From the NCBI GenBank assembly GCA_963836075.1, contig CAWIIB010000001.1:928001-992000 (forward strand): a stretch of 64,000 nt of DNA, given 5' to 3'. Shown here piece by piece: positions 11,751 through 40,637 of this stretch. This DNA comes from an uncultured Acidobacteriota bacterium (lineage in GTDB: Bacteria; Acidobacteriota; JAQAZP01). The position numbers were made by a program, and so were the translations under genes. The notes below the pieces were generated by a model. The model was given only the letters and a program-made list of their open reading frames with translations. It was not told the origin of the DNA and did no database searches. Position 1 is the first letter of the stretch. The number at the start of each line of letters is the position of its first letter.

Positions 11751-14453
11751 GTGCGCATCCACCGGCGCTTCCTGTTGCTGACCACAGCCATTGTTCTTCT
11801 CACCGTGATGAGCGCCCCACTTCCCGCCGCAGTGATCCAGGTCCCGGCCCACCAGCCGACCATCCAGGCCGGTATCGACGCTGCGGCAGACGGTGACACG
11901 GTGCTGGTGGCCGACGGCGTCTACACCGGCCCGGGGAACCGGGACATGTATTTCCGGGGCAAGGCGATCACGGTGATCTCGGAGAACGGCCCGGACCACT
12001 GTGTCATCGACCTCCAGGGCAGCCTGGACGACCCGCACCGGGCCTTCTGGTTTCACCAGCAGGAGGGCCCCGACTCGGTGCTGGAAGGCTTCACCATCCG
12101 CAACGGCTACGCCACGAACCGGGGCAGCGCCATCTGGTGCTCGTCCTCGCCCACCATCAGGAACAACTACATCATCCACAACGACGGCAACAACTGGAAT
12201 ACCGGCGCCCTCTATTGCTGGTATTCAGCTCCCACCATTGTCGACAACCTGGTGGCCCGCAACGGCACAACGGGCGGGATCCTCCTCGAGCACGGCGGGG
12301 AGCCGACCATCGCCGGCAACATCATTTTTTACAACCAGTGGGACGGGATCAACTGCCTGAGAACGAACCCCGCAACCACGATCAGCGACAACCTGATCCT
12401 GGAAAACCGCCGGATGGGTATCTTTGGCGATTATGCGGAGCTCGATATCCTCAGGAACCGCATCGTCGACAACCGCCTCAACGGAATCGCTGGCGAGTAT
12501 TCGGCAATGAACATCGAAGGGAACATCATCACCGGCAACAGCGGCAGTCGCGGTGCCGGTATCCGGTGTGGTGGCAATGTCACCATCACCAACTGCCTGA
12601 TCAGCGGCAACCAGTCGGTGGACTTCGGCGGCGGGATCTATTTCGGCAGGGCGGGCACAACCAGTGATTCGTTCTGGATGACCGGCTGCACCGTCACCGG
12701 CAACAGCGCCCTGGAAGGCGGCGGCGGCATCTTCAACGGAGAGGACGATGCCCACGTTTACGACTCCATCATCCACGGCAATTCCGCTCCCCAGGGCCGG
12801 GAGATCTACCTCGGTCACGACACCTTCGGCGGCGGCATTTTCTCCATCAACTGGTCCGACGTGGTGGGCGGTCAGGATCTTATCTTTATCGACCCTGAAG
12901 CGACCCTCTGGTGGGGCACGGGGATGATCACCGAACTCCCGCTGTTCACCTCCGGCCCCCTGGGTTCCCACTACCTGTCCCAGACCGCCGCCGGCCAGCC
13001 GGAGGACAGCCCCTGCGTGGACCGCGGTTGGCCGCTGACCGAGATGCCCCAGGGGACCACTCGCACCGATGGCGTCCAGGATGTGGATACCGTGGACATG
13101 GGCTACCATTACCCGTTGACCGGCGGAGCCCCGGTGATCTGCCTCGATCCCCTCTGGCTCTCCTTCGAGGGCGTCTTCCCCGGCGGCACTCCCGCAGACC
13201 AGGTTCTGGAAATCCGGTCCTGCGACGGCAGCCTGCTGGAATGGAGCGTGAGCAGCGGGGCGGACTGGCTGACCTTCAGCCCGGCCTCGGGCTCCTGCAC
13301 CGGCGAGGTGGACCAGGTGACCGTGAGCGTCGTCCCCGGCGCTGCCGGCCCCGGAGAATTCCTCACCCTGATCAGAATCCTCGGCATCGGGGCCGCGAAC
13401 TCGCCGCTTAAGATTCCGGTCAAGCTGAAGCTGGAGGATGGCCCTCCATCCCCGTGGATCGTGACCGGTCCGGGTCCGGCCGAAGGCAACCCCACCTCAG
13501 TGAGAAGCTTCCCGCCGCTGGCCAACGCCGGCCATGACCTGGAGTTCACCGCCTACGGCGTGCAGAAATACGGCGTCAACATCACCTGCGGTGACGTGAC
13601 CGGCGATGGCCGTGCCGAGTTCATCACCGGCGCCGGGCCCGGAGCGGTCTTCGGCCCCCACGTGCGGGGGTTCGGGAGGACCGGAGCGCCCCTGCCCGGC
13701 CTCAGCTTCCTGGCTTACGGAACAGACAAATACGGGGTCAACGTGGCCGCCGGCGACCTGAACGCGGACGGTATGGATGAGATCATCACCGGCGCCGGGC
13801 CCGGAGCTGTGTTCGGGCCCCACGTTCGCGGGTTCACCTACAGCGGCTCCGCGGTGACACCGCTCTCGGGCGTCAACTTCTTCGCCTACGGCACACTGAA
13901 GTGGGGGGTCAACGTGGCTGCCGGGGACATCGACGGTGACGGCTACGACGAGATCGTCACCGGCGCCGGGCCCGGCCCTGTTTTCGGACCCCACGTCCGG
14001 GGCTGGAACGTGGACGGCGGAACAGCCGCGGCCATGGCCGGGGTCAGTTTCTTTGCCTACGGCACCCCGCGCTATGGCGTGGGGGTGAGTTGCGGCGACG
14101 TGGACGGTGACGGGATCGACGAGATCGTCACCGCCCCCGGGCCCTCTCCCCTGTTCGGCGCCCACATCCGTGGCTGGAACCATGACGGGACTTCGATCAC
14201 CGAACTGCCGGGGCTCAGCTTCTTTGCCTGGCCACCGGAGAGCATGCTCTACGGCGCCGAGGTCTGGGCCGGCACCGACCTGGATGGTGACGGCCGGGCG
14301 GAGATCGTCACCGGGCCGGGGCCCGACCCCTCCGCCGGATCAGCGGTAAAGGTATTCCGCTACCACGAATCAGGGGACGTCACCGAGTGGCTGTCCCTCG
14401 AAGCCTTCCCCGGCCTGACCCATGGCGCCACCGTGGCCGCCGGCTGGTTCTAG
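11751..14453 (+). CDS. Secreted right-handed parallel beta-helix protein + BACON-like domain + C-terminal tail A (six FG-GAP-like units)
   Basis: Signal peptide; VP..QPTIQAGIDAA.DGDTVLVADG start; Asn/Gly-rich beta-helix repeats; DSPC..TTRTD..DMGYHY; WLTFSPASG; six TG(A/P)GPG units. Confidence 0.85.
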   Translation: MRIHRRFLLLTTAIVLLTVMSAPLPAAVIQVPAHQPTIQAGIDAAADGDTVLVADGVYTGPGNRDMYFRGKAITVISENGPDHCVIDLQGSLDDPHRAFWFHQQEGPDSVLEGFTIRNGYATNRGSAIWCSSSPTIRNNYIIHNDGNNWNTGALYCWYSAPTIVDNLVARNGTTGGILLEHGGEPTIAGNIIFYNQWDGINCLRTNPATTISDNLILENRRMGIFGDYAELDILRNRIVDNRLNGIAGEYSAMNIEGNIITGNSGSRGAGIRCGGNVTITNCLISGNQSVDFGGGIYFGRAGTTSDSFWMTGCTVTGNSALEGGGGIFNGEDDAHVYDSIIHGNSAPQGREIYLGHDTFGGGIFSINWSDVVGGQDLIFIDPEATLWWGTGMITELPLFTSGPLGSHYLSQTAAGQPEDSPCVDRGWPLTEMPQGTTRTDGVQDVDTVDMGYHYPLTGGAPVICLDPLWLSFEGVFPGGTPADQVLEIRSCDGSLLEWSVSSGADWLTFSPASGSCTGEVDQVTVSVVPGAAGPGEFLTLIRILGIGAANSPLKIPVKLKLEDGPPSPWIVTGPGPAEGNPTSVRSFPPLANAGHDLEFTAYGVQKYGVNITCGDVTGDGRAEFITGAGPGAVFGPHVRGFGRTGAPLPGLSFLAYGTDKYGVNVAAGDLNADGMDEIITGAGPGAVFGPHVRGFTYSGSAVTPLSGVNFFAYGTLKWGVNVAAGDIDGDGYDEIVTGAGPGPVFGPHVRGWNVDGGTAAAMAGVSFFAYGTPRYGVGVSCGDVDGDGIDEIVTAPGPSPLFGAHIRGWNHDGTSITELPGLSFFAWPPESMLYGAEVWAGTDLDGDGRAEIVTGPGPDPSAGSAVKVFRYHESGDVTEWLSLEAFPGLTHGATVAAGWF

Positions 14454-16101
14454 GGAGCAATTCCGGTCACGGTACAGCTGTCCGTGGAGGAATCGCCTGC
14501 CGGCGGGTAGGGCGGCTGGTTGTACGGCGCAGGAGTCACATCCAGCGCCAGCATCGTGAAGCGGGTGTCACCCACCAGGGTGGGCAACTCCGGAATAGTC
14601 TGGCTCCACGTGGTGACGAAACTCTCTCCGCCCTGAACATTCGCGTATCCCGCTCGCCAGTTGGAAACAGATCCGCCGCCGGCCAGCCGGATGTCGATAC
14701 GGGCCGCGATACGGCGTCGGTTGACCGATAAAAATGTTGGCCAGGTCCGCCTCCATGGAGACGGCGAAAGGCAGGGCACCGGCGGAGGGATTGCACTCCA
14801 ACCTCGTGGCCACCGAGACGGCTGGCAGATAATGATACCCCATGTTCACAATACTGCCATCCAGGCCTCGATCTGTTCGGGTGGTCAACTGGTCCAGACA
14901 GACCGTACCGCTGCCATCTTCATAGCAGACCAAACTGGCCGCTTGGCCCCCACTGTTGAGACAGGGGCTGTCCGCCGGCTGGCCGGCGGCCGTCTGACGA
15001 AAGATACCAGCTGCCAAGTGATCCGATAGAAAACAGTGGAGCAGCATCGATCATCCCCTCTCCCCAGTCGAGAATACCTCCGAGAAGTATGGACTGCCGC
15101 CGCTCCACCGTCGACGTTCGTAAAGTTCAGCTGCAGAGTCGATGGTCCGAGAGAGAGTGCGCCCACGTGACACTGGTCTCCGAAATTCAGCCTCGTTGCC
15201 CCGGATGATCGAATTTTCCACCACCACGGTGGAGAAAGGGCCGGCGGAGCCACCAAGTTGAGGCGGTTCGACACAGAGTCCACCGCCATACTCATTGGCA
15301 TCAGAAGACATCGACTCTGTTCGCGGTGATGGTGCAGTTGACGATGGTGACCGTCGATCCTTGGAGCAGTGGATGCCACCGCCTCCAGAGGGAGGTGGGT
15401 CGGTGAAACCGTATCCCTGGATACTGTTTCCAGTAATCAGATTGTTCATCAGCAGCATGGAGCACCCCAGGGCAGAGACTCCGCCGCCTATCCCCCCGCT
15501 GATATTGTCGCTGATGGTGTTGCCGCTGATTTCCGGCGATCCAGAGGTGCAGCAGATTCCGGCCCCGGCGCCGACAGTGTCCGGGTGATCCACTGCCAGG
15601 TTGCCAATGATCAGGTTCCCGTTGATCAGCGGACTTCCCTCATGAATATCGATTCCCGCCCCGAATAGGCCCTGTTGGCGGTGATCACATTGCCCAGGAT
15701 TGACGGTGAAGCTTCGAATACACGCCACCCCCCCGCCATTCCCGTAGAGTACCCATGTCCCCACCACGGATTGTGAACCCCTGGAGGACCGAGTCCCGTC
15801 CCTCACCGTTTTGAAAAATGAACCCCCGGCGCTGCTCCATCTCACTGCCCTGGCAGTCTATAATGCAGTTGTCAGGGCCGTATTCCGACCGGACGGTGAT
15901 CGCCTTGCCCAGAAAGTCGACGTCCCGGTTGCCGGGACCGGTGTAAAGACCGTCAGCCACCAGCACTTCATCGCCCGCCGCGGCTGCATCAATCCCGGCC
16001 TGGATCGTGGGTTGGTCGCTGGGGACGTGGATCACGGCTGCCGGAGAGGATCCGGCGATGAGAAGGAGAAGCAGGATCAAGGTCGCAAGATATCTGTTCA
16101 T
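14450..16101 (-). pseudogene. Secreted beta-helix protein with C-terminal tail B; reading frame broken by about nine single-base indels (pseudogene or consensus error)
   Basis: Fragments in ORFs 15685-16482, 15051-15845, 14885-15379, 14920-15108, 14568-15047 and 14450-14779 join collinearly with paralog 16116-17804; start MNRYLATLILLLLL at 16101. Confidence 0.8.
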
Positions 16102-16115
16102 TACAATGCCCCCCA

Positions 16116-17804
16116 TCAATTCCTGGCAGTTGCAGTATACGGGGCGTCCCCGGTGACCGCACAGCTGTGGGCCATGGTATCGCCGGAAGCGGCATAAGGC
16201 GGCTGGTTGTAGGGCGCCGATGTCACATCCGCCACCACTATGGTGAACACATTTTCGCCGACCAGAGTGGGCAGCGCAGGAATGTTCTGGACCCAGGATG
16301 TTGTGTAGCTCTGCCCGCCGGCAACGTTTGTATACCCCGCCCGCCAGTTGGCCACTGAACCGCCGGAAGCCGGCAGGACATCGATCCGGCCGGCCAGGCG
16401 GCGCGGCTGGTCGGCCACCCGGTTGTCCAGACTCACCGCCATTGAAATGAGGAATGGAAGGACACCGCCGGCGGGAGTGCATTGGAGCCTCGCCCCCACC
16501 GTCCCGCCGGACATGTAGTGAAAACCCATGTCCACGACACCGCCATCCCGAACCTGGTCGGTGCGGGTGCCCAACTGGTCCAGGCAGACCGTGCCGCTGG
16601 CATCGTCGTGGCAGATCGTTCCGGCAGCAGCGTTGCCGCTGTCGAGGCAGGGGCTGTCCGCGGCCTGGCCGGCGGCGACCTGTTGGAGATACCAGTCGCC
16701 AAGCGGTCCGGCGGCAAAGAGCGGATCCGCGTCGATCATACCCGGACCCCAGATGAGGCTTCCGTGAACCAGCACCTCGGCTTCGCCGCCGTCCAGGTCC
16801 GAATGTTCTAGAGAGAGGACCGCCGGTCCTTCAGCGGTGTTTCCGACATAGCACTGTGCGCCGAAATCGGCCGAGTTGCCGAAGATGATCGAATTCTCCA
16901 CGGTGACCGTCGTGGGGCCGTGGTTGATCTCAAATTGCGGCGGTTTGATACTCATCCCTCCGCCATGCCCGTACTGCGAATAGAAATCGATGACCTGGTT
17001 CATGGCGATGGTGCAGTTGATGATCGTCACCGCACCGTTGGCGACATCGCAACCCACACCCCCGCCGTTGGCGGCAATGGTCAGCCCGACGTCCAGCTCC
17101 ACCCGGTTCCCCACGATGAGATTGTTCGCCAGGAGGATGTGATCGTTCCCGAAACAGGCGATGCCCCCGGCCATGGCGCCGCTGAAGTTGTCGCTGATGA
17201 TGTTGCCGACGACCTCCGCCGTTCCGATGCAGGAAATACCACCGCCGACGCCGGTGGGATCGTTGTGCGCCAGGGCCACATTGCCACTGATGATATTCCC
17301 GGCAACCAGTGAAGAGCCGCCGACCACGAGCCCTGCACCCCACCAGGCCCGATTGGCAGTGATCACGTTATCCAGAATCGAGGGGGAAGCCCCGCCCGTG
17401 GCATAGACTCCCCCGCCGTATCCGTATACCCCCATGTCACCGTTGCGGATGGTAAACCCCTGGAGTACGGAATCCCGGCCCTCTCCGCTCTGGAACACGA
17501 AACCGCGGTGCTGCTTGGTCTGGGAGCCCCCGCAATCGACGATGCAGTTGTCCGGGCCGTATTCCGACCGGACAGTGATCGCCTTGCCGAGAAAGTCCAC
17601 GTCCCGGTTGCCGGGACCGGTGAACAGGCCGTCGGCCACCAGCACCGTGTCACCGTTCACCGCGGCATCAATGCCGGCCTGGATGGTGGGCTGGGCGGCG
17701 GGAACATGGATCACGGAGGCCGCCGTCGGAACTGCATTGAACAGGACGACAATACCAAAGAAACTGAGGAAACATCCGTAGCGGAGCAGATTCCGAATTG
17801 ACAT
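16116..17804 (-). CDS. Secreted parallel beta-helix protein with C-terminal tail B
   Basis: Signal peptide; beta-helix N-cap as above; DMGFHY, then ARLQC...WRAGYTN...DVTSAPYNQPPY...C. Confidence 0.85.
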   Translation of the reverse strand: MSIRNLLRYGCFLSFFGIVVLFNAVPTAASVIHVPAAQPTIQAGIDAAVNGDTVLVADGLFTGPGNRDVDFLGKAITVRSEYGPDNCIVDCGGSQTKQHRGFVFQSGEGRDSVLQGFTIRNGDMGVYGYGGGVYATGGASPSILDNVITANRAWWGAGLVVGGSSLVAGNIISGNVALAHNDPTGVGGGISCIGTAEVVGNIISDNFSGAMAGGIACFGNDHILLANNLIVGNRVELDVGLTIAANGGGVGCDVANGAVTIINCTIAMNQVIDFYSQYGHGGGMSIKPPQFEINHGPTTVTVENSIIFGNSADFGAQCYVGNTAEGPAVLSLEHSDLDGGEAEVLVHGSLIWGPGMIDADPLFAAGPLGDWYLQQVAAGQAADSPCLDSGNAAAGTICHDDASGTVCLDQLGTRTDQVRDGGVVDMGFHYMSGGTVGARLQCTPAGGVLPFLISMAVSLDNRVADQPRRLAGRIDVLPASGGSVANWRAGYTNVAGGQSYTTSWVQNIPALPTLVGENVFTIVVADVTSAPYNQPPYAASGDTMAHSCAVTGDAPYTATARN

Positions 17805-17980: not shown

Positions 17981-20591
17981 ATGGGTATGGACATGAGATG
18001 GGGCATCGCGCTGCTGGCTGCCGTGATTCTTTGCCTGGCCGCCCCGGCGGATGCCGGACAAGGGCATGATCGGGGATTACTGGGCTTGATCGAGCAGCAG
18101 CTCGGTGATGGTTCAGTCGACCACAGCACGGCCCTGCGCTGGAAGATCCTCTGGTTCAAGCGGCCTGATCTGCTGCCGCAGATGCTGAAGGACGCCGGCC
18201 CCACCGCCATCGGTTGCGCCACCCCGGTGGTGCTGGAGATCATTCGCAACTTCCACCGCCTCTCCCCTGCCGACCTGGACTGGCTGCGGGACCTGGCCGG
18301 GATTCGTGACCTGGCCGGAGTGCTGGAGCGGCCGCCCTTTGCCCACACCATCCAGTCGGCACTCTACCCGCTCCGTGTGCACTACGAAACACCGGGCCAG
18401 GAGGCGACGGCACAGATGACCCTCCAGGTCTATGAGGAATCGTGGCAGCGGGAGTGCGACGAGATCGGCTTTTTCGAACCGCCGCCCGACTACGGCATGG
18501 AAGGGAGCGACGACCTCGACGTCTACATCTCGGACCAGGTACCCGCCGGCGCCTGGGGCTACACCGGCCACGAGCATGAGGTGAAGGAGACCTGGTGGTA
18601 TGACTACACCTCCTATATCGTGCACAGCAGCGACCTGACCTCGCACTACACCATCGCCATGACCGGCTCCCACGAGTTCAACCACGCCTGCCAGGCGGCC
18701 ATGGCGGCGGAAGAGCCGGCCGCCTTCTGGGAGAACAGCGGCCCAGTGGGCCATCCCCCACGTCTACCCCGAATACAGCGAGCAGACCTGGGCCGCCACT
18801 TCGGGGTTCCAGCTGGAGCCCTGGCGGGCGGTGAGCGACTACGTGGCAGGCGCGATCTACCAGTACGGCGGCCTGATGTGGCCCGAGTATCTGGAGGACC
18901 GCTTCAACGGCTGGGATCCGGACCTGGTGCGCGACGCCTGGGACTGGTGCCGTGACGGTCCGGGGGATGGCTACAACCACGACTATTTCTCGGCCTTTGT
19001 CCAGATCGCCGAGACCTTCGAGCCCGGCGGACCGTCGGGCACGGGCTGGACCATCGCCGACGTGATCATGGACTTCTCCCAGTGGCGCTGGTTCTGCGGC
19101 CCCGAGCTGGACGACGGCCTGCACTTCACCCACGGCGCCGGCTTCGCGCCGGTGAACGTGGAACCGTCCCAGCGCCACACCTCCCTGCCCGCGGCCGGCC
19201 CGCCCCAACTGCCCACCCCGCCGCAGCTCTTCGGGGTCAACTACGTGCGTCTCGACGAAGCGTTGTCCGGAGCACAGCCACTGACCGTCTTTCTCCACGC
19301 CGAACCGAAGCACTTCTCCAGCGACCTGCGGTGGAAGGTGGGCGTGCTGCAGCAGGAACTGGGCGGTGTGTCCCACTACACGGTGCACGACGTGCCCCAG
19401 GAGAGCTATGCCCTCTGGCTGGAGATCGATCCCGGAGAGAGCACCGACCGGCTGGCCCTGGTGGTGGGCAACATGGCCACCGCCACCGCGGGCCCCGGCT
19501 CGAGCTATGCCACCAGGGACTACCTCTACATGGTCTGGCCGGGGACCGACCCGCCGCGCTCGACAATCTTTGCCGCCCCGGGCCCGGGGCCGGAGAACAG
19601 TCCCCTGTTCAAGGGTGTGCTCACCGCGGACACGGCGGTGGAATGCTGCCTGCGCGAGCACGAAACGGCCAACAGCTTTGGCCTGCGCATCGCCACCGGC
19701 GACGTGGACGGCGACGGGGTGGAGGAGGTGATCTGCGGCAGCGGTCCCGACCCCTCTGCGGCGCCGCTGTTCCGGGTCTACGAAGTCAACGGCCGCCCGT
19801 TGAACGGTGCCGAGGCAGTGGCCTACGGCGTCTCAGCCTTCGGCGTCAACGTGACCGCCGGCGACCTGGATGGCGACGGCTATGCTGAAATCGTCACCGG
19901 CGCCGGCCCGGGCGCCGTGTTCGGCCCCCACGTCCGCGGCTGGAACCTGGACGGCGCAGGCGCTGCGTCCATACCCGGGGTCAACTTCTTCGCCTACGGT
20001 ACCAACAAGTGGGGCGTCAACGTGGCCGCCGGCGACATCGATGGCGACGGGTTCGACGAGATCATCACCGGCGCCGGCCCGGGTGCGGTGTTCGGATCGC
20101 ACGTCCGGGGGTGGAACGTGGACGGCGGCGCGGCAACAGCCATCCCGCAGATCAACTACTTCGCCTACGGCACCCCGCGCTGGGGGGTCAACGTGGCCTG
20201 CGGCGACCTGGACGGCGACGGCATGGACGAGATCATCACCGGCGCCGGACCGGGGACGGTCTACGGGCCGCACGTCCGGGGCTGGAACTGGGACGGCTCG
20301 GCGCTCACTCCCCTGCCCGGTCTGAGTTTCATGGCCTACGGCACCCTGCAGTATGGGGTCAACGTGGCCGCCGGCGACCTGGACGAGGACGGTGTGGCCG
20401 AAATTCTCACCGGCCCCGGTCCCGGACCTCTTTTCGGCGCCCATGTCCGCGGATTCGACTATGACGCCGCACAGGGCCTGGTGACCCCGCTCACCGAGAT
20501 CAACTTCTTCGCCTTCCCACCCGGGGGCGGCGAGGCTTCCGGTTACGGGTGCAGTGTGGCCGTGGCCGACCTGATGACCGGTCCTGTCTGA
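17981..20591 (+). CDS. Secreted zinc metalloprotease (resembles MXAN_6640-type) with C-terminal tail A; +1 frameshift at ~18740
   Basis: GGAG RBS; signal peptide; SHEFNHACQ (HEXXH). Removing one G at ~18740 gives FWENSAQW...RAVSDY and joins ORF 18831-20591, which carries six tail-A units. Confidence 0.8.
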
Positions 20592-20633
20592 CCGTAGTGC
20601 CTTCCTTTGACAGAGGCGTCCCTGAATCAGTGC

Positions 20634-20662
20634 TTGACCGATCTGGGCCAATTGCCTATATT
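20634..20662 (+). promoter_or_regulatory. Putative sigma70 promoter of the xre-res operon
   Basis: TTGACC-17 bp-TATATT, followed by a TGTCATTTGTC repeat and an AGGAGG RBS. Confidence 0.55.
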
Positions 20663-20695
20663 GATAGTGTCATTTGTCCACAAAGGAGGATCATC

Positions 20696-21772: not shown

Positions 21773-24700
21773 ATGAGAGGTGAGGACCGGCCCGTTGGGC
21801 CCTGCCGCCTGATCCTGTTCACCATCCTGCTCTCCCTGACCGCCATCGCCGGCTCCGCCGGCGAGCTGGTACTGGAATACGATTTTGCCAAGCCCCTGCT
21901 GACCCGCATCGAAGCGGGCGGCACGGTGTTTGACCGGGTGACCATCCCCGGCTGCACCAGCGGCGGTATCGCCGGTGAGCCGGCCCTGCCGGCCATGGGG
22001 GCCGAGATCCTGCTGCCCATGGGCGCCGAAGCGCTGGGTGTGGAGGTGATCCCGGGCAAGGGCATCCTGCTGGGCAGCGGGTTCCTGGTGGAACCGGTGG
22101 CACAGCCGGTGAAACTTTCCGCCGCTCCCGGATCGGCGCTTCCCCCAACCCCGGACAAGGCCATCTACCGCTCGACCCTCCCCTTCCCCGCATCCAGCGT
22201 GGAGGAGATGGGGACCCACAATTTCCGCGGCTACCCGATCCTGGTGCTGCGGCTGATGCCGGTCCAGTATCTGCCGGCCACCGGCGACCTGGTCTGGTTT
22301 CCCCAAATGAAAGTGGTGGTCCGGACGGCTGAATCCCGCTCGCTCTCGCCGCTCTTTCGTGGGCTGCCCGGGGACGAAGCTACGGTGCTGGCCCGGGTGG
22401 ACAACCCGGAAGCAGTTGCCAGTTACGCCGGCGCCGGACAACGGGACGGCCGGGCATACCAGCTGCTGATCCTGACCACCGACGGTCTCGCCTCGTCCTT
22501 CACCGCGCTGAAGAACTACCATGACGCCCGCGGCATCCCCACCGAGATCCACACCACAACACAGGTGGGCTCCAGCGACCCGGGTGACGTGCGTGACTAC
22601 ATCCGCCAGCGCTACCAGGGCGACGGCATCGAGTATGTGCTGATCGGCGGGGACGACGACCTGATCCCGGCCCGCGACCTCTACGTGGACGGCGAGTCCG
22701 CCATGCCGGGGGACATCTACTTCGCCTGTCTCGACGGCACCTGGAACGACGATGGCGACGGCCGCTACGGCGAGCCGAACGACGGTCCGGGCGGCAGCGA
22801 CGTCGACCTGGTGGCCGAGGTCTACGTGGGCCGCTGCGCGGCGGGCAACACCACCGAGGCCAACCGCTTCGTGGACAAGACCCTCTGGTATCTGAACAGC
22901 GAACACAGCCGTCCGGAGCAGGTGCTGCTGGTGGGCGAGTACCTCGGTTTCGGCGGCCCCTCCGAGTATGCCGCGGCCACCATGGAGGAACTGGTGGACA
23001 GCTGCGACACCCACGGCTACAGCACCACCGGCATCCCCAGCACCGAGTTCACCATCGGGGAAATGTTCGAGCGGGACGGCGACTGGAGCCGCTCCGACCT
23101 GGCCGCCAGCATCAATGACGGCCTGCACATCCTCAACCACCTGGGCCACGGCAGCCCGGACTACGCAATGAAGTTCTACAACGGCGACGTCCTCTCCTAC
23201 CTCGACAACGAGGACCTCTGCTTCGTCTACTCCCAGACCTGCCTGGCCGGGCACTTCGACGACTTCGACTGCTGGGCCGAGCACATGAACATCAAGACCG
23301 ACGCCGGCGCCTTTGCCGTGGTGATGAACGCCAGATACGGCTACGGCCAGTACTCCTCCACCGACGGTCCCTCCCAGCGTTTCAACCGCGAGTTCTGGGA
23401 CGCGGTGTTCGCCGAAGGGATGCCGCAGATCAGCAAGGCCAACCAGGACTCCAAGGAAGACAATATCTACCGCATCAACGAGAGCTGCATGCGCTGGTGC
23501 ACCTACGAGCTGAACCTCTTCGGCGATCCCACCGTGGCCTTCTCCGGCGCCGAGGTCACCGGCCTCAGCGTCAGCCCGCGCACCGAACTGGAATCCGAGG
23601 GGATGGCCGGCGGCCCGTTCAGTCCCGTGAGCATCACCTACACCCTGGAGAACATGAACGCCACCGGCATCGACTACACCGTCTCCCGGACCCAGCCCTG
23701 GGTCAGCCTCTCCAGCAGTTCGGGCCACCTGGCCGCCGGGGCCAGCGCCACGGTGACCGTCTCGATCAACGAGTACGCCGCCACCCTGACCAACGGCCTC
23801 TACAGCGACACGGTGAGCTTCGTCAACACCACCGACCACGATGGCGACACCACCCGCGGGGTCAACCTCCAGGTGGGGGTCCCCACCATGCAGTACAGCT
23901 GGAACCTGGACAGCGACCCCGGCTGGGAGATGGAGGGCGGTAGCAGCGGCTGGGCTTATGGCCAGCCCGCCGGCGGGGGCGGCGTGGAATACGGCAACCC
24001 CGACCCCACGTCGGGTCATACCGGCGCCAAGGTGCTGGGCTTCAACCTCGGCGGCGACTACCCGCCGGACATGGCCGAGCAGCACCTGACCTCGGGAGCC
24101 TTCGACTGCTCCGAGCTGACCCTGGTCACCGTGAAGTTCTGGCGTCACCTCAACGTGGAGACCAACAGCTACGACCACGCCTACGTGCGGGTGAGCAACG
24201 ACGGCAGCAGCTGGACCACGGTCTGGGAGAACAGCGGCGAGATCACCGACGGCGCATGGTCCCAGGTGGAACACGACATCTCCTCGGTGGCCGACGGCCA
24301 GTCCACGGTCTACCTGCGCTGGACCATGGGGACCACCGACGGCGGCTGGGAATACTCCGGCTGGAACGTGGACGACATCGAGGTCTTCGGCCTCACCGGC
24401 TCCGGTGGAACGACCACCTCCCCGGTGATCATCACCGGTCCCGGCGAGGGTCCGGACAACGTCACCGACGTCCACGGCTACCTCGTCTTCGACACCACCA
24501 CCCCGGCCACGGTGATCAACGCCTACGGTGTTGACCGCTACGGGGTCAACGTGGCGGTGGGCAACTTCGATTCCGACATGGCCCACGAGATCATCACCGG
24601 GCCGGGACCGGGGGCGGTATTCGGGCCCCAGGTGCGGCTCTTCGACTTCAACGGCACGCCGCTTCCCGGATCCAGCATCATGGCCTACGGCACCAACAAA

Positions 24701-25420: not shown

Positions 25421-25452
25421 GCCGGGACATCGTCTGACAACCAGACCTCCAG

Positions 25453-25571: not shown

Positions 25572-28471
25572 ATGAGTTCTCATACCGCATTGATCATAGG
25601 AATCGCTCTTCTCGCCGCCCTGACGCTCACCCCGCCGGCCCTTTCCGCGACGCTGCATGTACCAGCCGAGTACCCCACCATCCAGGCCGGTATCGATGCC
25701 GCCGTGGACGGGGACACGGGTACCTGGTGGCCGACGGCACCTACACCGGGGACGGCAACCGCGACATCAATTTTCGGGGAAAGGGCATCACCGTCCGGTC
25801 GGCCAACGGGCCGGAAACCTGCATCCTGGATCTCGAAGCCAGTTATTGGGAAATGCACCGTGCATTTCTGTTCCAGGACAATGAGGACCGGACCTCCATA
25901 CTGCAGGGATTTACCATCACCAATGGGGACAACTCGTGGTTCAGTTTGCAGGGCGGAGCGATTTACTGCCTGGGGGCTTCGCCCACAATTGTCGACAATG
26001 TCATCACCGACTGCGGTGCAGGTTACGGTGGAGGGATCTATTGCGAAGGCGGTTCCCCTTCCATCATTCGCAATACCTTTTCGGACAACGTGGCATACAT
26101 CAACGAGGCCCCCGGCACGCCAGGAAAGGGGGGCGCCATCGCCCTGTTCAGTGGCGCCGAGCCGCTGATCTCCGAGAACACATTCAGCGGAAACAGGTCC
26201 AGCGAAGCCGGAGGGGCCATTTACTCCCGGGAATCATCGCCGATTATCACCGAAAACCAATTCGACGGGAACTGGACCTCGCCAGCCTTTCCCGACCTCC
26301 GCGGGGATGGAGGGACCATCTACTGCCTGAATGGGGGTCTGGTGGAGGATAACCAGATCGACAATGGCACAGCTGATGATGGTGGCGGTGTCCACGCCAG
26401 TGGCTCGGTGATCATCAGGGGCAATGTATTTGAAGACAATTCCGGCCATTGGGGCGGCGGAGCGATCCATGCGCACGGCCCGGTGCAGATCCGGGACAAT
26501 CTCATTCTCAGAAGCCGAGCCGACGATATCTTGTCCGGAGCGGGCATACATTTCACCGGCACCGGGGGGGTGGCCACGGGAAACATCATCATGGATACTC
26601 TGGGCACGGCCATATCCAACATTGGCGGCCCGGTGACCGTGGAGAACACGCTGCTGGTCAACTATGTCACTGCCTTATTTAGCCTCGATGAAATCGTCAT
26701 TCGCTCCTGCACCATCGTTGACAACCTGGATCCCTATGGGCCCACGATATTCCTTTTCGGCAACACCACAATCAGCGATTCGATCATCTGGGGCAACAGC
26801 CCGGACGGGGAGGCGATCCGGTTGCAGGACGCAGAACTCTCCATCCACCACTGCGACCTCGAAGGGGCGCAAACCTCCATTGAACTGATTAATGATGCCG
26901 CCCTCAATTGGGGCCCGGGGATGATCGACTCCGACCCACTGTTCATCGAGGGTGTCGATGGCTTCCACTACCTGTCCCAGACCGCTGCCGGTCAGGCGAT
27001 TGACAGCCCCTGCTTGGACCGGGGCAGCGCCTCGGCGGCAGACCTGGGTCTCGATCGTTCGACAACACGGACCGACCTGGTCCCCGACAGCGGAACCGTG
27101 GACATGGGCTACCACTCCCCTGCGCCGGGCAACGAACCGGACACCATGATCACCGGAGGCACATCTGGAACCACTGACTCGCCGATCGTCTGCTTCTCAT
27201 TCAGCGGGATCGACGACACCGACCCGCCTTCGTCCCTCACCTTCTCCCACCGCCTGGACAGCGGCCCCTGGTCCGACTACTCGGCGCAGACCGATGCCTG
27301 TTACGAAGACGTCGAGAACGGCAGCCACACTTTCGAGGTGCGCTCCCGGGATGCGGAAGGCAATGTCGATCCCTCCCCGGCCGTGCGGGTCTTTGCCACC
27401 ATTCCCTGGGACAAAAGCGGTTGGACCGGCCTGGTCACCGGACCGGGCCCCGGCCCGCTCAACCCTCCGCTGGTGCGAACACCACTGGCCCAGTGGGCGG
27501 CGTACGGCGTTTACCGGCATGGCGTCAATGTGGCCTGCGGAGATCTGGACGGCGACGGCACGGCGGAAGTGGTCACCGGTCCCGGCCCGGGACCGGTCTT
27601 CGGCCCCCACGTCCGCGGATGGGAACTGGATGGCACCCCGCTGGCCGGCGTGAACTATATTGCCTACGGCACGCTGAAATACGGGGTTAACGTGGCCTGC
27701 GGGGACATCGACGGCGACGGCTTTGACGAAATAGTGACCGGTGCCGGACCGGGCGCGGTCTTTGGCCCTCATGTCCGGGGGTGGAATTATGATGGCAGCG
27801 CTTCCACAACGGCCCTGCCGGAGGTCAGCTTTTTTGCCTACGGAACGCTGAAATACGGGGTCAACGTGGCCTGCGGGGACCTCGATGGCGACGGGTTCGA
27901 CGAGATCGTCAGCGGTGCCGGGCCGGGCGCGGTTTTCGGCCCCCATGTCCGGGCCTGGAACTGGGACGGGGACGGCAGCGTGATCCCAATCCAGGGTATC
28001 AGTTATTTTGCCTATGGCACCCTGAAATGGGGGGTCAACGTGGCCTGTGGAGACCTCGACGGGGACGGCATGGATGAAATCGTCACCGGGCCCGGACCGG
28101 GATCGATTTTCGGCGCCCACGTGCGGGGCTGGAACAGCGACGGTGGGCCGGCCACCCCGATACCGGGTATAAACTTTTTCGCCTACACTTCAAACCATGG
28201 CTGCGCGATGGGTGCCGGTGACATCGACGGTGATGATATCGACGAAATCCTCACCATGCCCGGGCCTGGTCCGGAAATGAACGCCCACCTACGGGCCTGG
28301 AACGCCAATGGCGGATCGGTCACCATCGTCCCGGAATACGACTTTCTCGCCTACGACGAGTGGTACACCCACGGCGGACGTGTGGCCGGCGTCGTGATGG
28401 CCATTCGCCGACGGTCTTCGGGGCCGCACCGGACACCATCCCCGGCAACGCTCCCCTCAAGGACCCGCTGA
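25572..28471 (+). CDS. Secreted beta-helix protein + Ig/Y_Y_Y-like domain + tail A; frameshift at ~25716-25724
   Basis: Signal peptide in ORF 25572 after GGAGG. GACACGGGTACCTGG equals the expected GACACGGTACTGG (DTVLV) plus two homopolymer insertions, joining ORF 25520-28471. GSHTFEVRSRD Ig motif; six tail-A units. Confidence 0.82.
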
Positions 28472-28494
28472 CCTGGCGATGTGGCCATCGAGTT

Positions 28495-30738: not shown

Positions 30739-30798
30739 GAATGTATCAGCGATCCTGCCATGGCCCGCATCTGGTTACCATACAGCTTCAGTGTGAAA

Positions 30799-30827
30799 AG
30801 CATAGTTCTCTCGAGCAGGCGCGTCAA
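30799..30827 (-). promoter_or_regulatory. Putative sigma70 promoter of the SLC12-like gene
   Basis: TTGACG-17 bp-TATGCT on the minus strand. Confidence 0.5.
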
Positions 30828-30900
30828 GGAGCCGCTGTTGTCCATCAAGAATAAATGACATACTGTGGGCAGCTGTACACTCAACAAAGGGAGCAGAACA

Positions 30901-34742: not shown

Positions 34743-35128
34743 GTGTTGATACTCCACTATTATCAGCCAACTCGCGGTTGGTTCATCAGATTTGAAGAGA
34801 ATGCCCGTAATGATTAGAGGTACAGAATAGTGGCTTCCCCGGAATGCGTCAATAATGGCGGGAGGGACAACAGCGATTGAATCCTGGCAGTGCATCGGAG
34901 CATTGCCTATCCAAAGAATGGACATGGCAAGCACCGCTTGACGGAAACAGGGTTCCTCCCTATCTTCTAATGTGCAGGAGTTGCACATCATCCCTCCCCT
35001 CACGCAGTAGTGAAGGTACCGACTGGTGTGAGCCTCTTCCCTCTTCTGCGGAGAGGCCCTGAACTCGTCCTGGCACGCGGCACCATGTCCATCGGAGGCA
35101 CAAACAATGCGACGGCAAATCGCGTCCG

Positions 35129-35846: not shown

Positions 35847-38800
35847 ATGTCCGGTTATCTTCGCTCGCTCGTTCTCCATCTCGCCCGGCGAATGACCTTC
35901 CTGGTTGTCGTGATCCTGCTGCTCTTGCCGCTGATGGAGACCGGCGCCCGGGCGGGATACATTCTTCAGTCCGCACGGCAGTTCGCCAATGAGTATACGG
36001 ACAACAGCGGGGTCAATGACCTCCAGGTGGGGGACGTGACCGGCGACGGCATCCCGGACGTGGTCACCAGCGGTTCATATTCGGAGGGATGGGCGCCACT
36101 GCTGGTCACCTTGCCGGGCCTGGGTGACGGCACCTTCAGCGATGCCGTAGTCACCGATCCTTCCCCTTCCCTGCCGTTCGGGGAAATCTGGCGGATGATC
36201 ATGACGCAATTGAACGGTGATCCATATCCCGATCTCATATTGAACTACGACGACTACGATATCGGGCGCGGCGTGGCCACGTTGCTCGGCAACAGCGACG
36301 GCAGCTTCTCACTGCACACCACTCTGCCCCTCAGCTACTCCCTCTACGACATGGCGGCAGGCGACTTCACCGGTGACGGCCTGACCGACCTGGCCATCGC
36401 TAAAACTTCGCACAGCTCCCCTGCCGTATGGATCTACCAGGGGAACGGCGACGGATCGCTGACCCATCACTCCACGGTGCCCCTGGACGAGGGTTCGTAC
36501 AGTGTGGTGGCGGGCGATTTCGACAACGACGGTGACCCGGACCTGGTCTGCGGGATCAACTCTGCTTCCCGCGGAATTCGCCTACTGCTCAATGACGGCA
36601 GCGGCAACTTCGCCGTCCATAGTTATGGCACGCCGTATGACGTCTGGTCCCTGGCCGCCGGTGACCTGAACAACGACGGCTATGACGACCTGGTGGCCGG
36701 CCATGGAACCGACGCCGAGGAAATCCGCGTCTTCTTCGGCAGCGCCGGGGGCACGTTCGACACCTGGAGCAGCCACCCCTTTGCCGAGAATTCCGGCTCC
36801 CTCAACCTGGGTGACCTCGACGGCGACGGCGATCTCGACCTGGTGGCCTTTGGCCGGGAGCCGTGGCCATCCGGTTTCGGGCCGGGCAGGGTCTGCGTAC
36901 TGCTCAATGACGGCAGCGGAGCCTTTGGCGAGGTGGACTACTGTTTCCGATCGGGGCTCGGGCTCCGGTTGGCCGACATGGACGGGGACAGCGCACTGGA
37001 CGCGGTCATGAGCGGTCCCGAAGACGAAAACGTCACCATTCTGCCCGGGGGTGGAGACGGCACCTTCCCCGCCATGTCCGATATCGTCATTGCCGGCATG
37101 TATCCCCAGGGTGTGGGGCACGCCGACGTGGATGGCGACGGGGACATCGACCTGGGCCTGGCCGCCCAGTATGAGTTTGACGCGACCCTGATCGTGCGCA
37201 ACAACGGAGACGGCACCTTTGCCGTGGTCGAATCCTATGACGTCGGCAGCGGCCCGTATGATGTGACCTTTGGCGACCTGGATGGTGATTGGCTGCCCGA
37301 GATGATCGTCATTACGTCCGCCTACACCTCGCCATCCGGCCTCTCGGTGATGCACAATGCCGGAAACGGCACTTTCGAAGACCGCCGTGACTACGAAATC
37401 GGGGCCAGTGACGCGGCTCTTGGGGACCTGGACGGCGACGGCGACCTCGACATCGCGGCCTGCCATTCGGGAAACCTCGGCGTCCTGATCAACCCGGGCA
37501 ACGGCATCTTCCCCGACCCGGTCTACTACCCCTCTACATCTTGGCCCAACGACCTCTGCCTGGCCGACATGGACGGGGATAACGACCTCGACGCGGTGGT
37601 GGACGGCGAGGTCGGTTCCACCTATGGGCCGTCGCTGCTGACCAACAATGGCGACGGCAGCTTCGCCGCCCCGCGCCAACTGGCAAGTATCAGCGGCTAC
37701 GCCATGTGCCTGGGCGACTTCGACGGTGACGGCGACCCCGATATAGCGATGACCGACGAATACACCGGCGAGGTGGCGATCCTGCTCAACGACGGCACCG
37801 GCCACTTTGGCGCCCCCACCCGGTACCCCTGCGGCGAATCCACCCTGGAGCTTGCCGCCGGCGACATCGACCGGGACGGTCATCTCGACCTGGTGGCCGC
37901 CAACCAGCAGTCGGGCGACATCGTGCTGCTCCGCGGTCTGGGTGGCGGCATGTTCGGCCCTCCGGAGTCGTATCCCCTCGGGGGCCTCCTTCGGGACATC
38001 AGCCTGGCCGACTTCGACGGGGACGGGTCACTGGATGTTCTGGCCAACTCCGTGGATCAAATTAGCGCCTCGATCTTCTGGAGCGCCGGGTCGGTCACCG
38101 GCCTGCTGGCCACCGGCCCCGGCCGGGGCGAACCGAACCCGACTCTGGTTCGCATTTTCCCCGCCACCGGGTCGGGGCTGCCCACGGCCGAATGGTCGGC
38201 CTACGGCGTTGACCGCTGGGGGGTCAACGTGGCCCTGGGCCAGCTCGACGGCTCGGGCTGGCCGGAGGTGCTCACCGGCGCGGGACCGGGAGCGGTCTTC
38301 GGGCCCCATGTCCGGGGCTTTACCGCCGACGGCACGCCGCTGGCCGGTGTCTCCTTCCTCGCCTACGGAACCAACAAATACGGGGTGAACGCCACCTGTG
38401 GTGACCTGGACAACGACGGTTTTGACGAGATCATCACCGGCGCCGGGCCGGGGGCGGTCTTCGGGCCCCACGTGCGGGGCTGGAACTGGGACGGCGCAGG
38501 CGTGCCCCAGCCGATCCCCGGCATCTCCTATTTCGCTTACGGCACGCCCAAGTGGGGGGTCAACGTCAGCTGCGGCGACATCGACGGTGACGACTATGAC
38601 GAGATCGTCACCGGCGCCGGGCCCGGTGCCGTGTACGGCCCCCACGTCCGGGGCTGGAACTGCGATGGCGGCGGGGCCACGGCCATCTCCGCGGTCTCGT
38701 TCCTGGCCTACGGCACGAACAAGTATGGCGTCAACGTCTGCTGCGGCGACATCGACGGTGACGGTATCGACGAGATGGTCACCGGTGCCGGGCCGGGGGA

Positions 38801-39110
38801 AGTCTTCGGCCCGCACGTCAGGGCATGGAACTGGGACGGCAGCGGAACGGTCCAGGCCATCCCGGGGGTGAGTTTCTTCGCCTACCCCTACCCGAAGTGG
38901 GGCGTCAACGTCTCCTGCGGCGACCTGGATGACGACAGTATCGACGAAATCCTCACCGGACCGGGACCTGGTCCCAACTACCCGGCATGGGTACGCGGAT
39001 TCAACTACGACGGCAATACGCTCAGCGCGCTGGGCGGCGTCGACTTCATCGCTTACGACGAAGGTGAGGGTGGCCGGTACGGGGTCAAGGTGGCCGGAGA
39101 TCGGCGGTAG
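35847..39110 (+). CDS. Secreted FG-GAP/VCBS repeat protein (14 repeats) with C-terminal tail A
   Basis: Signal peptide; 14 (G/A)DxxxDGxxD(L/V)-type repeats followed by six tail-A units; ATG at 35847 after GAGG. Confidence 0.85.
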   Translation: MSGYLRSLVLHLARRMTFLVVVILLLLPLMETGARAGYILQSARQFANEYTDNSGVNDLQVGDVTGDGIPDVVTSGSYSEGWAPLLVTLPGLGDGTFSDAVVTDPSPSLPFGEIWRMIMTQLNGDPYPDLILNYDDYDIGRGVATLLGNSDGSFSLHTTLPLSYSLYDMAAGDFTGDGLTDLAIAKTSHSSPAVWIYQGNGDGSLTHHSTVPLDEGSYSVVAGDFDNDGDPDLVCGINSASRGIRLLLNDGSGNFAVHSYGTPYDVWSLAAGDLNNDGYDDLVAGHGTDAEEIRVFFGSAGGTFDTWSSHPFAENSGSLNLGDLDGDGDLDLVAFGREPWPSGFGPGRVCVLLNDGSGAFGEVDYCFRSGLGLRLADMDGDSALDAVMSGPEDENVTILPGGGDGTFPAMSDIVIAGMYPQGVGHADVDGDGDIDLGLAAQYEFDATLIVRNNGDGTFAVVESYDVGSGPYDVTFGDLDGDWLPEMIVITSAYTSPSGLSVMHNAGNGTFEDRRDYEIGASDAALGDLDGDGDLDIAACHSGNLGVLINPGNGIFPDPVYYPSTSWPNDLCLADMDGDNDLDAVVDGEVGSTYGPSLLTNNGDGSFAAPRQLASISGYAMCLGDFDGDGDPDIAMTDEYTGEVAILLNDGTGHFGAPTRYPCGESTLELAAGDIDRDGHLDLVAANQQSGDIVLLRGLGGGMFGPPESYPLGGLLRDISLADFDGDGSLDVLANSVDQISASIFWSAGSVTGLLATGPGRGEPNPTLVRIFPATGSGLPTAEWSAYGVDRWGVNVALGQLDGSGWPEVLTGAGPGAVFGPHVRGFTADGTPLAGVSFLAYGTNKYGVNATCGDLDNDGFDEIITGAGPGAVFGPHVRGWNWDGAGVPQPIPGISYFAYGTPKWGVNVSCGDIDGDDYDEIVTGAGPGAVYGPHVRGWNCDGGGATAISAVSFLAYGTNKYGVNVCCGDIDGDGIDEMVTGAGPGEVFGPHVRAWNWDGSGTVQAIPGVSFFAYPYPKWGVNVSCGDLDDDSIDEILTGPGPGPNYPAWVRGFNYDGNTLSALGGVDFIAYDEGEGGRYGVKVAGDRR

Positions 39111-39170
39111 TTCCCGCGTAGGGCGATGAAATTTTCAGCACTGTCGAATCAGGGAAAATCAGCTCATTTC

Positions 39171-40637
39171 TCACGGCGCCACTCCGGTCACGGTGCATAA
39201 AGCAGCGACCGTGTCCCCGGCTGGCGGGTACGGGGGTTGGTTGTAAGGTGCCGGCGTGACGTCTTCGGCCACCAGGGTAAAGACGTTGTCGCCCAGCAGG
39301 CGCCCCAGAGCCGGCAGATTCTGATTCCAAGCTGAGATATAGTTCTCCCCAGGTGCCAGGTTCGTATACCCCGTCCTCCAACCGGCAATATATCCACCCC
39401 CACCGAGGGTAAGGTGGATCTTCGCTGCCAGCCTCCGCCGTTGGCCGGTGTAAAGGTTGGTCAGTGAAGCGGTCATCTGGGTCGTGAACGGCACGATGCC
39501 CGAACCGGGCATGCACGTCAGATCCGCCGAGACCGTTCCCATCGCATTAATCAGCACCGAGATATTGTGGCTCCTCCAATTTGCTACGACCAGGTCCAGG
39601 CTACCGTCGTCATCCAGGTCGCCGATGGCGATCGAGCGAGGATCGTCACCAGCCCCGTAATTCACGGCGGTCTGGAATGTGCCGTCACCATTGCCCAGCA
39701 GCACCGAGACGCTGTCGTAAGAATTTGCCGTGGCCAGATCCGGATTGCCGTCGTCATCCAGGTCGCCGATGGCCACCGACATTGAACCGCCAGCGGTCTG
39801 ATAATGCGCGGCAACCTGGAAGGAGCCGTCCCCATTGCCCAACAGCACCGAGACGTTGTCGCTGACAAAATTCACCACGGCCAGGTCCGAATTGCCGTCG
39901 CCATCAAGGTCACCGATGGCGATTGAATAAGGTCTGGTATCGGCTCCGTAATTGGTCGCTGTATTGAAGGTGCCGTCCCCGTTGCCCAGCAGCACCGAAA
40001 CGTTATCGCTAATAGCATTCGCCACGGCCAGGTCCGGGTTGCTGTCACCATTCAAGTCGCCAATGGCAACAGACCGGGGATACTCACCGACCCCGCAATT
40101 CATGTTGGCCGAGAATGAGCCGTCACCGTCGCCCAGCCACACCCAGACGTTGTCGCTGTATGAATTCGCTTCGACCAGGTCCGGATTTTTATCGCCGTTC
40201 AGGTCACCGATGGCGACGGAATAAGGAGCAATACCGGGCCCGTAGAAATTCACGGCGGCCTGAAAGGTTCCGTCCCCGTTGCCCAGAAGAACCGAGAGGT
40301 TGTTGTCGTCGTAGTTCGCCACGGCCAGGTCCGGCTTGCCATCGTTATCAAGGTCGCCGATGGCCACAGAAACAGGAAACCCACCGGTCCCGTAGTTCAC
40401 GGCAGCCTGGAAGGAGCCGTCCCCATTGCCCAGCATCACCGAAACCGTATCACTGTAATTGTTCACCACAACCAGGTCCGGATTGTTGTCACCGTTCAGG
40501 TCGCCGATGGCGACTGAAAGAGGCCAGTTACCGGCCTCGTATTCCAGGCTGGGATAAAACAACTGTGCTTCGGTTGTCGTCGGGAGAAGAAAGCAAAAAA
40601 ACAACACTGCGATGAAAAGACCATGCACAACTCTCAT
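39171..40637 (-). CDS. Secreted FG-GAP/VCBS repeat protein (7 repeats) with C-terminal tail B
   Basis: Signal peptide; seven ~49-aa SVAIGDL.GD..PDL.VAN..SDNVSVLLGNGDG repeats; ADLTC...WRTGYTN...DVTPAPYNQPPYP...CTVTGVAP. Confidence 0.88.
   Translation of the reverse strand: MRVVHGLFIAVLFFCFLLPTTTEAQLFYPSLEYEAGNWPLSVAIGDLNGDNNPDLVVVNNYSDTVSVMLGNGDGSFQAAVNYGTGGFPVSVAIGDLDNDGKPDLAVANYDDNNLSVLLGNGDGTFQAAVNFYGPGIAPYSVAIGDLNGDKNPDLVEANSYSDNVWVWLGDGDGSFSANMNCGVGEYPRSVAIGDLNGDSNPDLAVANAISDNVSVLLGNGDGTFNTATNYGADTRPYSIAIGDLDGDGNSDLAVVNFVSDNVSVLLGNGDGSFQVAAHYQTAGGSMSVAIGDLDDDGNPDLATANSYDSVSVLLGNGDGTFQTAVNYGAGDDPRSIAIGDLDDDGSLDLVVANWRSHNISVLINAMGTVSADLTCMPGSGIVPFTTQMTASLTNLYTGQRRRLAAKIHLTLGGGGYIAGWRTGYTNLAPGENYISAWNQNLPALGRLLGDNVFTLVAEDVTPAPYNQPPYPPAGDTVAALCTVTGVAP

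Follow-up and report, generated by a model that had tools for sequence, protein, structure and literature searches.

Why do eight exported proteins of unrelated folds, encoded close together in the genome of an uncultured Acidobacteriota bacterium, end in one or the other of only two conserved C-terminal domains? The genes lie in a 64,000-nucleotide stretch of contig CAWIIB010000001.1 (assembly GCA_963836075.1, positions 928,001 to 992,000), referred to here as the window. An initial annotation, made from the sequence alone, had described eight signal-peptide genes, five carrying tail A and three carrying tail B, and proposed that the tails are lineage-specific modules for export, anchoring or complex assembly. 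Sequence reading and profile matches bear out this inventory: all eight genes (8/8) start where predicted, each has a signal-peptide-like N terminus as read from the sequence, and the C-terminal tails are as described. We found that both tails recur throughout the genome, that they are exchanged between passengers and that they appear confined to one genus. Our favored reading, to which we give a probability of about 0.5, is that both tails serve as non-covalent surface tethers (docking modules) particular to this genus and carried by exported cargo.

Genome-wide recurrence and position of the tails

Profiles built from the window copies were run for one iteration against the six-frame translation of the genome, and they place the tails far beyond this locus: tail A has 141 loci and tail B has 217, of which 120 and 207, respectively, span 70% or more of the model. 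This recurrence is far above chance, because median identity within each family is 56% for tail A and 47% for tail B. Open reading frames (ORFs) that bear a tail make up 11.6% of the genome, and the two tails never occur together on one ORF.

The expectation that the tails are always C-terminal holds for about 97% of copies. Where a locus reaches the end of the model, no more than 15 residues follow in 88 of 92 cases for tail A and 197 of 201 for tail B. Data from outside the genome agree: no more than 20 residues separate tail A from the C terminus in 117 of 120 proteins, and no more than 15 separate tail B from it in 146 of 150. Tail B is not strictly terminal, however: an internal copy is present in two genome ORFs, more than 15 residues follow the tail in 4 of the 150 database representatives, and 8 complete doublets among these representatives carry it in tandem. 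Two proteins, at G000:C9:1846369-1846878 and C1:1239395-1239847 (G000 denotes this genome; G001 and G002 are its sister genomes, the three being species of one genus), consist of tail B alone; one has a lipoprotein-like signal, and the other, in which the loop has diverged, has a plain signal peptide. Orthologs of these two genes were found in G001 only, at 73% and 60%.

Signal peptides, lipoboxes and transmembrane segments were called with crude heuristics, under which 495 of 1,380 other long ORFs also appear to have a signal peptide. Against that background, the predicted pairing of tails with signal peptides appears as a clear enrichment (84/109 tail A ORFs and 136/182 tail B ORFs). A lipobox is rare among tailed proteins (6/169, compared with 89/644 other exported proteins), and only 4 of 281 tailed proteins have a predicted transmembrane segment after residue 50.

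Distribution of the tails in the phylum

Tail B is found in 136 places in G001 and 111 in G002, and in 3 of 301 genomes of the phylum when at most 14 candidates were scored per genome; tail A, used as a single-sequence query at E≤1e-20, is found in 3 of 201. These phylum tallies include one unpublished genome, G025, that matches neither tail. Among 1.84 billion representatives, tail B has 510 relatives, 388 of them at E≤1e-30, and a viral collection yielded only two weak FG-GAP matches. Searching with tail A as a profile at 1e-12 brought in distant propellers from four more genomes, with a best E value of about 1e-27 as against 1e-164; these were internal in two of the loci that we read and terminal in one. 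Several of these distant tail-A-like propellers belong to another small-genome genus of Acidobacteriota (G030, G059 and G073). Judged by these searches, both tails appear confined to a single genus of Acidobacteriota, as the proposed lineage specificity would have it. We found neither tail described in the literature, within a coverage that excluded subscription journals and bioRxiv supplements.

Tails are exchanged between passengers

The initial annotation held that tails and passengers are freely combined, and the genome supports it. Clustering of 326 passenger segments gave 101 clusters, and members with tail A and tail B are mixed in 18 of the 35 clusters that have more than one member. 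Scanning 20 of the 101 cluster representatives recovered, among others, beta-helix, FG-GAP, M28, S8, M1, S41, Vps10 and GSDH families, and six representatives had no match. The exchange can be seen directly in a pair of peptidylarginine-deiminase paralogs that share 96.5% DNA identity over 1,269 nt: the identity ends exactly where tail A starts in one copy, and the other copy runs on through further domains to tail B. Tails have been swapped between passengers; that foreign passengers were re-tailed is the direction that we infer.

The C25 peptidase illustrates how this C-terminal position is filled elsewhere. Its 120 best relatives end in tail A (5), in tail B (4, and one more that is apparently frameshifted), in a short acidic motif (19, by regular expression), in a dockerin-like pattern (46, by regular expression) or in other sequence (46, most of it dockerin-like by eye and a few partial). 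Library support for the dockerin call comes from PF00404, precomputed in 7 of the 120, and NF041540, which matched 2 of 28 scanned proteins below its cut-off. This genome also encodes nine dockerin proteins; of the eight scanned, 8/8 match PF00404, six of them over the cut-off, and these dockerins sit on the same types of passenger (beta-helix, S8, M1, M14 and GDSL). Tails A and B thus fill a slot that dockerin-like tails hold in other lineages. Relatives of the passengers that carry no tail are few: only 24 were left after 33 possible split genes had been set aside, 7 with a dockerin and 2 with another tail.

The acidic motif is an observation in its own right. It spans about 20 residues at the C terminus of C25 peptidases of other Acidobacteriota (P0278, P0303 and 17 more proteins), one of which is named Thermoanaerobaculales by its source. 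It is absent from G000, no NCBIfam model matched it in three proteins scanned, and its terms did not occur in the papers that a literature search listed.

Tail A is a propeller and tail B a sandwich

Tail A, about 335 residues long, had been taken for an unclassified domain and is instead an FG-GAP-repeat propeller. It matches the FG-GAP families PF01839 and PF13517 in Pfam as well as an integrin alpha-V profile (E 5.8e-8), and its model (predicted local distance difference test (pLDDT) 95.5) has 24 strands in six four-stranded blades. The blades carry DxDGDG loops, which are near-identical in blades 2-4 (73-79% mean column conservation). In Foldseek the top match is Streptomyces UmbA4 (PDB 9oee; E 1.2e-7, 21% identity), with a Psathyrella lectin and integrins close behind, and the VIA ranking is headed by six-bladed propellers, Kelch among them (Z 22.6). 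Kelch domains are peptide binders. The nearest Atlas clusters are Planctomycetota FG-GAP proteins. The C-terminal six-bladed propeller of UmbA4 binds teichuronic acid, a cell-wall glycan (PMC13274773), and a 2011 survey called the function of bacterial integrin-type propellers unknown (PMC3192720). Among FG-GAP propellers, tail A forms a new subfamily, one with six blades. Likeness of fold does not establish function, and tail A is on that likeness a putative glycan binder.

Tail B, about 122 residues long, is predicted to be an eight-strand immunoglobulin (Ig)/fibronectin type III (Fn3)-like sandwich (pLDDT 96.7). Its best fold matches are RbmA (4be5; Z 12.1, root-mean-square deviation 2.7, 106 residues aligned), transglutaminase 3 (Z 11.8), AlkC (Z 11.2) and the CARDB protein 3idu (Z 10.0), at 10-15% identity and TM-scores of about 0.6-0.7. 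Sequence searches yielded no relevant Pfam family over 41 diverse copies (four stray single matches, best E 0.046), no member at E≤1 to PF07705 or the fn3 models (0/41) and a best E of 0.7 in a profile search of the PDB; Atlas leads to CARDB-like clusters at 0.90 are weak recognition. Conservation is highest in an invariant Pro-rich loop before the last strand and in Arg and Trp residues on the middle strands, and a pair of Cys residues is present together in 124 of 187 copies. Tail B therefore looks, on its model, like a new family in a common fold. Whether the tails match a characterized domain is accordingly answered differently for each: tail A belongs to the FG-GAP repeat family, which leaves tail B as the one new family of domains.

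A further C-terminal module of about 108 residues, without a Pfam match, is present in three propeller proteins (G000:C1:2260031-2261689, C9:1491624-1493213 and C8:66632-67333) and may resemble planctomycete tails. It shows no detectable relation to tail B (hhalign probability 0.2%, with a two-sequence template).

Surface tether or export signal

If the tails are surface tethers, cargo would cross the inner membrane by Sec, given the signal peptides seen in the sequence, and would fold in the periplasm, as the paired Cys residues of tail B and the DxDGDG loops of tail A suggest. It would most likely cross the outer membrane through the genome's general type II secretion system (T2SS)-like apparatus and then be held at the cell surface, its tail binding either a surface glycan or a surface-anchored protein. 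Tail A would bind multivalently through its six near-identical blades and tail B through its Pro-rich loop and conserved Arg/Trp residues. Passengers from other lineages would be re-tailed by recombination at the junction, where the swap itself is seen.

The strongest competing explanation, although one that we consider rather unlikely, is that an outer-membrane machine (the T2SS-like cluster or an unrecognized translocon) recognizes the tails as folded export signals, with any surface retention being secondary. Several observations suit it. The tails are almost always terminal, passenger relatives without a tail are few, and two size classes of tail sit on the same passengers, as is also true of the C-terminal domains (CTDs) of the type IX secretion system (T9SS). 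The genome moreover has a complete-looking T2SS-like cluster (G000:C1:2167454-2178804) with a secretin, an ATPase, PilM/PilN-like proteins and pseudopilins, in addition to a type IV pilus cluster. The T2SS-like secretin is phylum-wide, however (36/41 genomes, or 35/40 without the unpublished one), and the tails are confined to one genus; the secretin could therefore serve as the route, yet it leaves the restriction of the tails unexplained, and we rejected it as a genus-specific tail reader. PorV had no match in three genomes (0/3; 91-100% complete), with a positive control that matched in 1 of 14, and a 335-residue sixfold propeller would be large for a signal.

Three points make us favor tethering over an export signal. 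Tail B is also found at internal positions, as tandem copies, as a stand-alone protein and on a predicted lipoprotein, and tail A is a large, sixfold-repeated propeller, traits that suit a binding module better than a cleaved signal; in addition, few tailed proteins have any other anchor. The many-to-one use of the tails on unrelated passengers, the swap at the junction, the slot shared with dockerin-like tails and predicted fold relatives that include surface-glycan binders (UmbA4 for tail A, and RbmA, which ties for the top match to tail B) were counted on the same side. Other points weigh against tethering. The fold matches do not discriminate, as Kelch leads for tail A and transglutaminase ties with RbmA for tail B; the strong terminal bias is predicted equally by an export signal; and a tail that looks, by sequence, near-obligatory on its passengers fits such a signal just as well. 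Near-strict terminal position and near-obligatory presence thus suit tether and export signal alike. In addition, the T2SS route is inferred from presence alone, the signal-peptide, lipobox and transmembrane calls are crude, and the ligand, partner and localization of the tails remain predicted.

It is unlikely, in our judgment, that the tails bind food rather than their producer, acting as generic adhesion modules that fasten secreted proteases and adhesins to particles or to other cells, whether prey or necromass, much as umbrella toxins are targeted by UmbA lectins and glycosidases by carbohydrate-binding modules. The closest solved bacterial propeller to tail A does bind foreign-cell glycans, and the passengers are rich in peptidases (M28, S8, M1, S41, C25 and C1). 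Target-binding modules tend to diversify, however, as in the 41 lectin families described among UmbA proteins (PMC13274773), whereas the tails keep one conserved surface over hundreds of passengers and three species, and a lipoprotein bearing only tail B fits poorly. That tails A and B instead partner each other, a propeller hub gathering B-tailed enzymes with no scaffoldin, is highly improbable: no ORF bears both tails, B is about 1.5 times as frequent as A and both are found in the same genus, but same-strand A-B neighbors are depleted (35, compared with 56.1 ± 5.3 expected; 0 of 2,000 shuffles as low), which is the pattern expected from tandem duplication, nothing anchors such complexes to the cell, and the A-B complex prediction score (0.03 against a mark of 0.32) is not evidence either way. 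Of the three roles first proposed, export or anchoring would be in keeping with the lineage restriction, C-terminal position, signal-peptide enrichment, exchange and dockerin slot, and assembly through A-B pairing finds no genetic backing, given the neighbor depletion.

Candidate partners

A recurring dedicated neighbor of the tail genes was not found over 74 loci of G001 and G002, which show general synteny with ordinary genes. One arrangement nevertheless offers candidate partners. A predicted lipoprotein (G000:C1:429057-430694) has four Y_Y_Y/Fn3-like repeats of about 97 residues, forming a stalk, and a 120-residue orphan head; on the same strand it is followed by a 771-residue orphan with a signal-peptide-like start (C1:426628-428943) and then by a tail-A papain-family protease. 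The lipoprotein head and the 771-residue orphan are each single-copy in the three genus genomes, are found in 3 of 151 genomes of the phylum and have no Pfam or NCBIfam match, and the orphan has no PDB relative by sequence. An initial scan of metagenomes gave no match to the orphan, and an alignment-based scan gave four loci. The order of the three genes is kept in G000, G001 and G002 and in two of these four metagenome loci, the other two being too short; one locus with this order looks like the G002 species. A tail-B gene follows in G000 and G001 and is missing in metagenome locus L244. We regard the stalked lipoprotein and the 771-residue orphan as candidate tail partners, a lead and not a finding: with one genus any genus orphan has such a profile, and flanking housekeeping genes are also syntenic.

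The genome also has four cohesin matches. In each of the three genus genomes, the T2SS-like secretin (G000:C1:2169991-2172390) has an acidic linker leading to a C-terminal cohesin domain (PF00963). Recruitment of dockerin-tagged cargo by this domain is a testable idea for which we found no literature. Another match, the predicted lipoprotein G000:C1:1016984-1017601, is essentially one cohesin domain and is likely, by sequence, to be an anchor for dockerin-tailed enzymes. No multi-cohesin scaffold was seen in a repeat screen with fragments that gave 89 candidates out of 970, of which 18 were scanned with Pfam and 3 were read; the screen recovered 5/5 control proteins with tandem tail B. Two proteins of about 2,180 residues with an Omp85-like terminus, as read by eye (G000:C9:2267534-2274079 and C9:1011957-1018487), are probably TamB-TamA fusions.

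The eight tailed genes and their surroundings

The passengers at this locus are those first described, namely beta-helix proteins, an HEXXH protease, a C25 peptidase and FG-GAP propellers. The first gene (11751..14453, + strand) encodes an exported beta-helix and BACON-like protein of 900 residues, assigned from sequence and Pfam, whose terminal tail A (13446..14450; profile match 13449-14451) is the 335-residue copy modeled as a six-bladed propeller. Two tail B genes follow on the - strand. That at 14450..16101 encodes a beta-helix protein and has several frameshifts in this assembly, one of which, near 14720, splits its terminal tail (14453..14819; profile match 14452-14722). Its neighbor (16116..17804) encodes an exported beta-helix-type protein of 562 residues ending in tail B (16137..16508; profile match 16139-16508) and six further residues. 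The beta-helix call comes from Pfam matches in 11751+ and 25520+ and, for the 17804- protein, which Pfam does not match, from 39% identity to the 11751+ passenger.

Four more tail-A genes lie on the + strand. The first (17981..20591) encodes an exported, MXAN_6640-like metalloprotease with an HEXXH motif (HEFNH), which matches NF045524 below cut-off; it has one frameshift at about 18780-18830, and its terminal tail A lies at 19560..20588 (profile match 19557-20574). An exported, gingipain-like C25 peptidase of 1,215 residues (21773..25420), with a propeptide and a choice-of-anchor-J-like domain, ends in tail A at 24419..25417 (profile match 24416-25418). The gene at 25572..28471 encodes an exported beta-helix protein, is frameshifted near 25718 and has an extension of about 25 residues after its tail A (27428..28399; profile match 27410-28388). 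The last (35847..39110) encodes an exported FG-GAP propeller protein with tail A at its end (P0152, 38094..39107; profile match 38103-39096). An exported FG-GAP propeller protein of 488 residues (39171..40637, - strand) completes the set, and its terminal tail B (P0001, 39174..39545; profile match 39173-39545) is the copy modeled as an Ig/Fn3-like sandwich. Three of the eight genes (16101-, 17981+ and 25572+) are thus frameshifted in this assembly; among the matches listed from the contigs of four runs, none had an indel at the three places.

Between two tail-A genes, window 20549-21588 (+) holds a type II RES/Xre toxin-antitoxin pair (NF049845 and NF049844). The cluster is interrupted at window 28495-35003 by an SLC12-like amino-acid/cation-chloride transporter, a membrane glycerophosphodiester phosphodiesterase and an MscS channel that has a long coiled region in the periplasm. 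Upstream, window 754-11603 is a housekeeping block (RNase G, rodA, pbp2, mreBCD and a FecR/Glucodextran_B protein) that ends in a PpiD/SurA-like foldase directly before the first tail-A gene. Beside the tailed genes on the other side, window 41872-49755 (-) is a surface-glycan cluster comprising a Gfo/Idh/MocA dehydrogenase (best NCBIfam match UDP-GlcNAc 3-dehydrogenase, below cut-off), a hexapeptide acetyltransferase, two DegT aminotransferases, an epimerase, an FAD oxidoreductase and a PMT-like membrane transferase. Its gene content suggests an acetamido sugar, and the cluster is a possible source of ligand for the tails.

Comparison with known systems

Tail B, a domain that no library names, terminates about 200 proteins per genome, and because ORFs with either tail cover so much of the genome, the tails would organize most of the organism's exported enzymes. 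Both tails are small, well folded and expressible alone, and the roles of non-cellulosomal docking tags and of bacterial FG-GAP propellers could be tested by binding assays without culturing. The logic of a many-to-one 'sequence suffix' on paralog-independent exported proteins has been set out before (PMC3237569), and the tails share it with LPXTG, PEP-CTERM and GlyGly-CTERM/MYXO-CTERM signals. They differ from all of these in being soluble, folded domains without a terminal helix. The LPXTG/PEP-CTERM/GlyGly-CTERM pattern of motif, transmembrane helix and basic cluster is not found on the tails, which end in beta-strands, and the one PEP-CTERM match in the genome is a 104-residue ORF away from them. 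The autotransporter barrel PF03797 had no match in the genome, with its positive control matching, and the tail folds are a propeller and a sandwich. Library scans thus found no T9SS-CTD, PEP-CTERM-type or autotransporter feature on the tails, as the initial annotation had supposed.

Among FG-GAP/VCBS integrin-type propellers (PF01839 and PF13517), UmbA4, the Psathyrella lectin (2bwm) and the integrin alpha-V head resemble tail A in their four-stranded blades with DxDGDG loops. Integrin alpha has seven blades, whereas tail A has six and its best global matches are six-bladed; unlike known FG-GAP propellers, tail A is a conserved terminal tag on about 140 unrelated proteins per genome. Tail B similarly shares its fold (Z 10-12) with CARDB/Fn3-like sandwiches (PF07705; RbmA 4be5; transglutaminase C-terminal barrels), but it differs in its lack of a Pfam match, its low identity to them, its own Pro-rich loop and its closed family of 510 proteins.

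The T9SS offers a close parallel. Its type A (TIGR04183/PF18962) and type B (TIGR04131) CTDs, which act with PorV, SprA and PorU, are likewise folded suffixes on hundreds of Sec-exported proteins in two classes, with a gingipain-like C25 peptidase among the cargo, and the CTD fold is a beta-sandwich, the kind of fold predicted for tail B. The differences lie in the missing CTD and PorV matches, the internal and tandem copies of tail B and the phylum, Acidobacteriota. T9SS CTD models (Por_Secre_tail/TIGR04183 and FlgD_ig) matched none of the window proteins or 41 tail B copies, and the single FlgD_ig match in the genome, below cut-off and with the positive control matching, is unrelated to the tails. 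SprA (0/3 genomes), PorP (0/1) and TIGR04183 searched genome-wide were also silent, but so were their control searches. Neither a T9SS CTD nor a cohesin is among the top 50 fold matches of tail B, an absence from a list that does not exclude them.

Type I dockerins outside cellulosomes (PF00404; GC-type NF041540) occupy the same slot on the C25 passenger and the same passenger types in this genome. A dockerin is a module of about 60 residues with paired calcium loops and helices, and neither the tail A propeller nor the tail B sandwich is related to it in sequence or fold: PF00404 matched neither tail A nor tail B (41 B copies). That the tail of the C25 peptidase varies by lineage, being dockerin-like, acidic, propeller or Ig, suggests that deep-branching diderms have time and again evolved terminal tags of their own, serving what may be a shared, horizontally moving pool of enzymes.

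On the features tested, then, the tails work like a dockerin- or CTD-type suffix yet fail membership of the T9SS, sortase-type, autotransporter and dockerin systems. A bolder version, which we hold to be doubtful, is an undescribed surface-display system in which about 350 enzymes per genome would each carry one of two unrelated folded tags read by dedicated, genus-specific envelope receptors, with the stalked lipoprotein and the 771-residue orphan as candidates. If true, it would give a bacterial FG-GAP propeller its first role as an address tag and would do with new parts what T9SS CTD or cohesin-dockerin display does.

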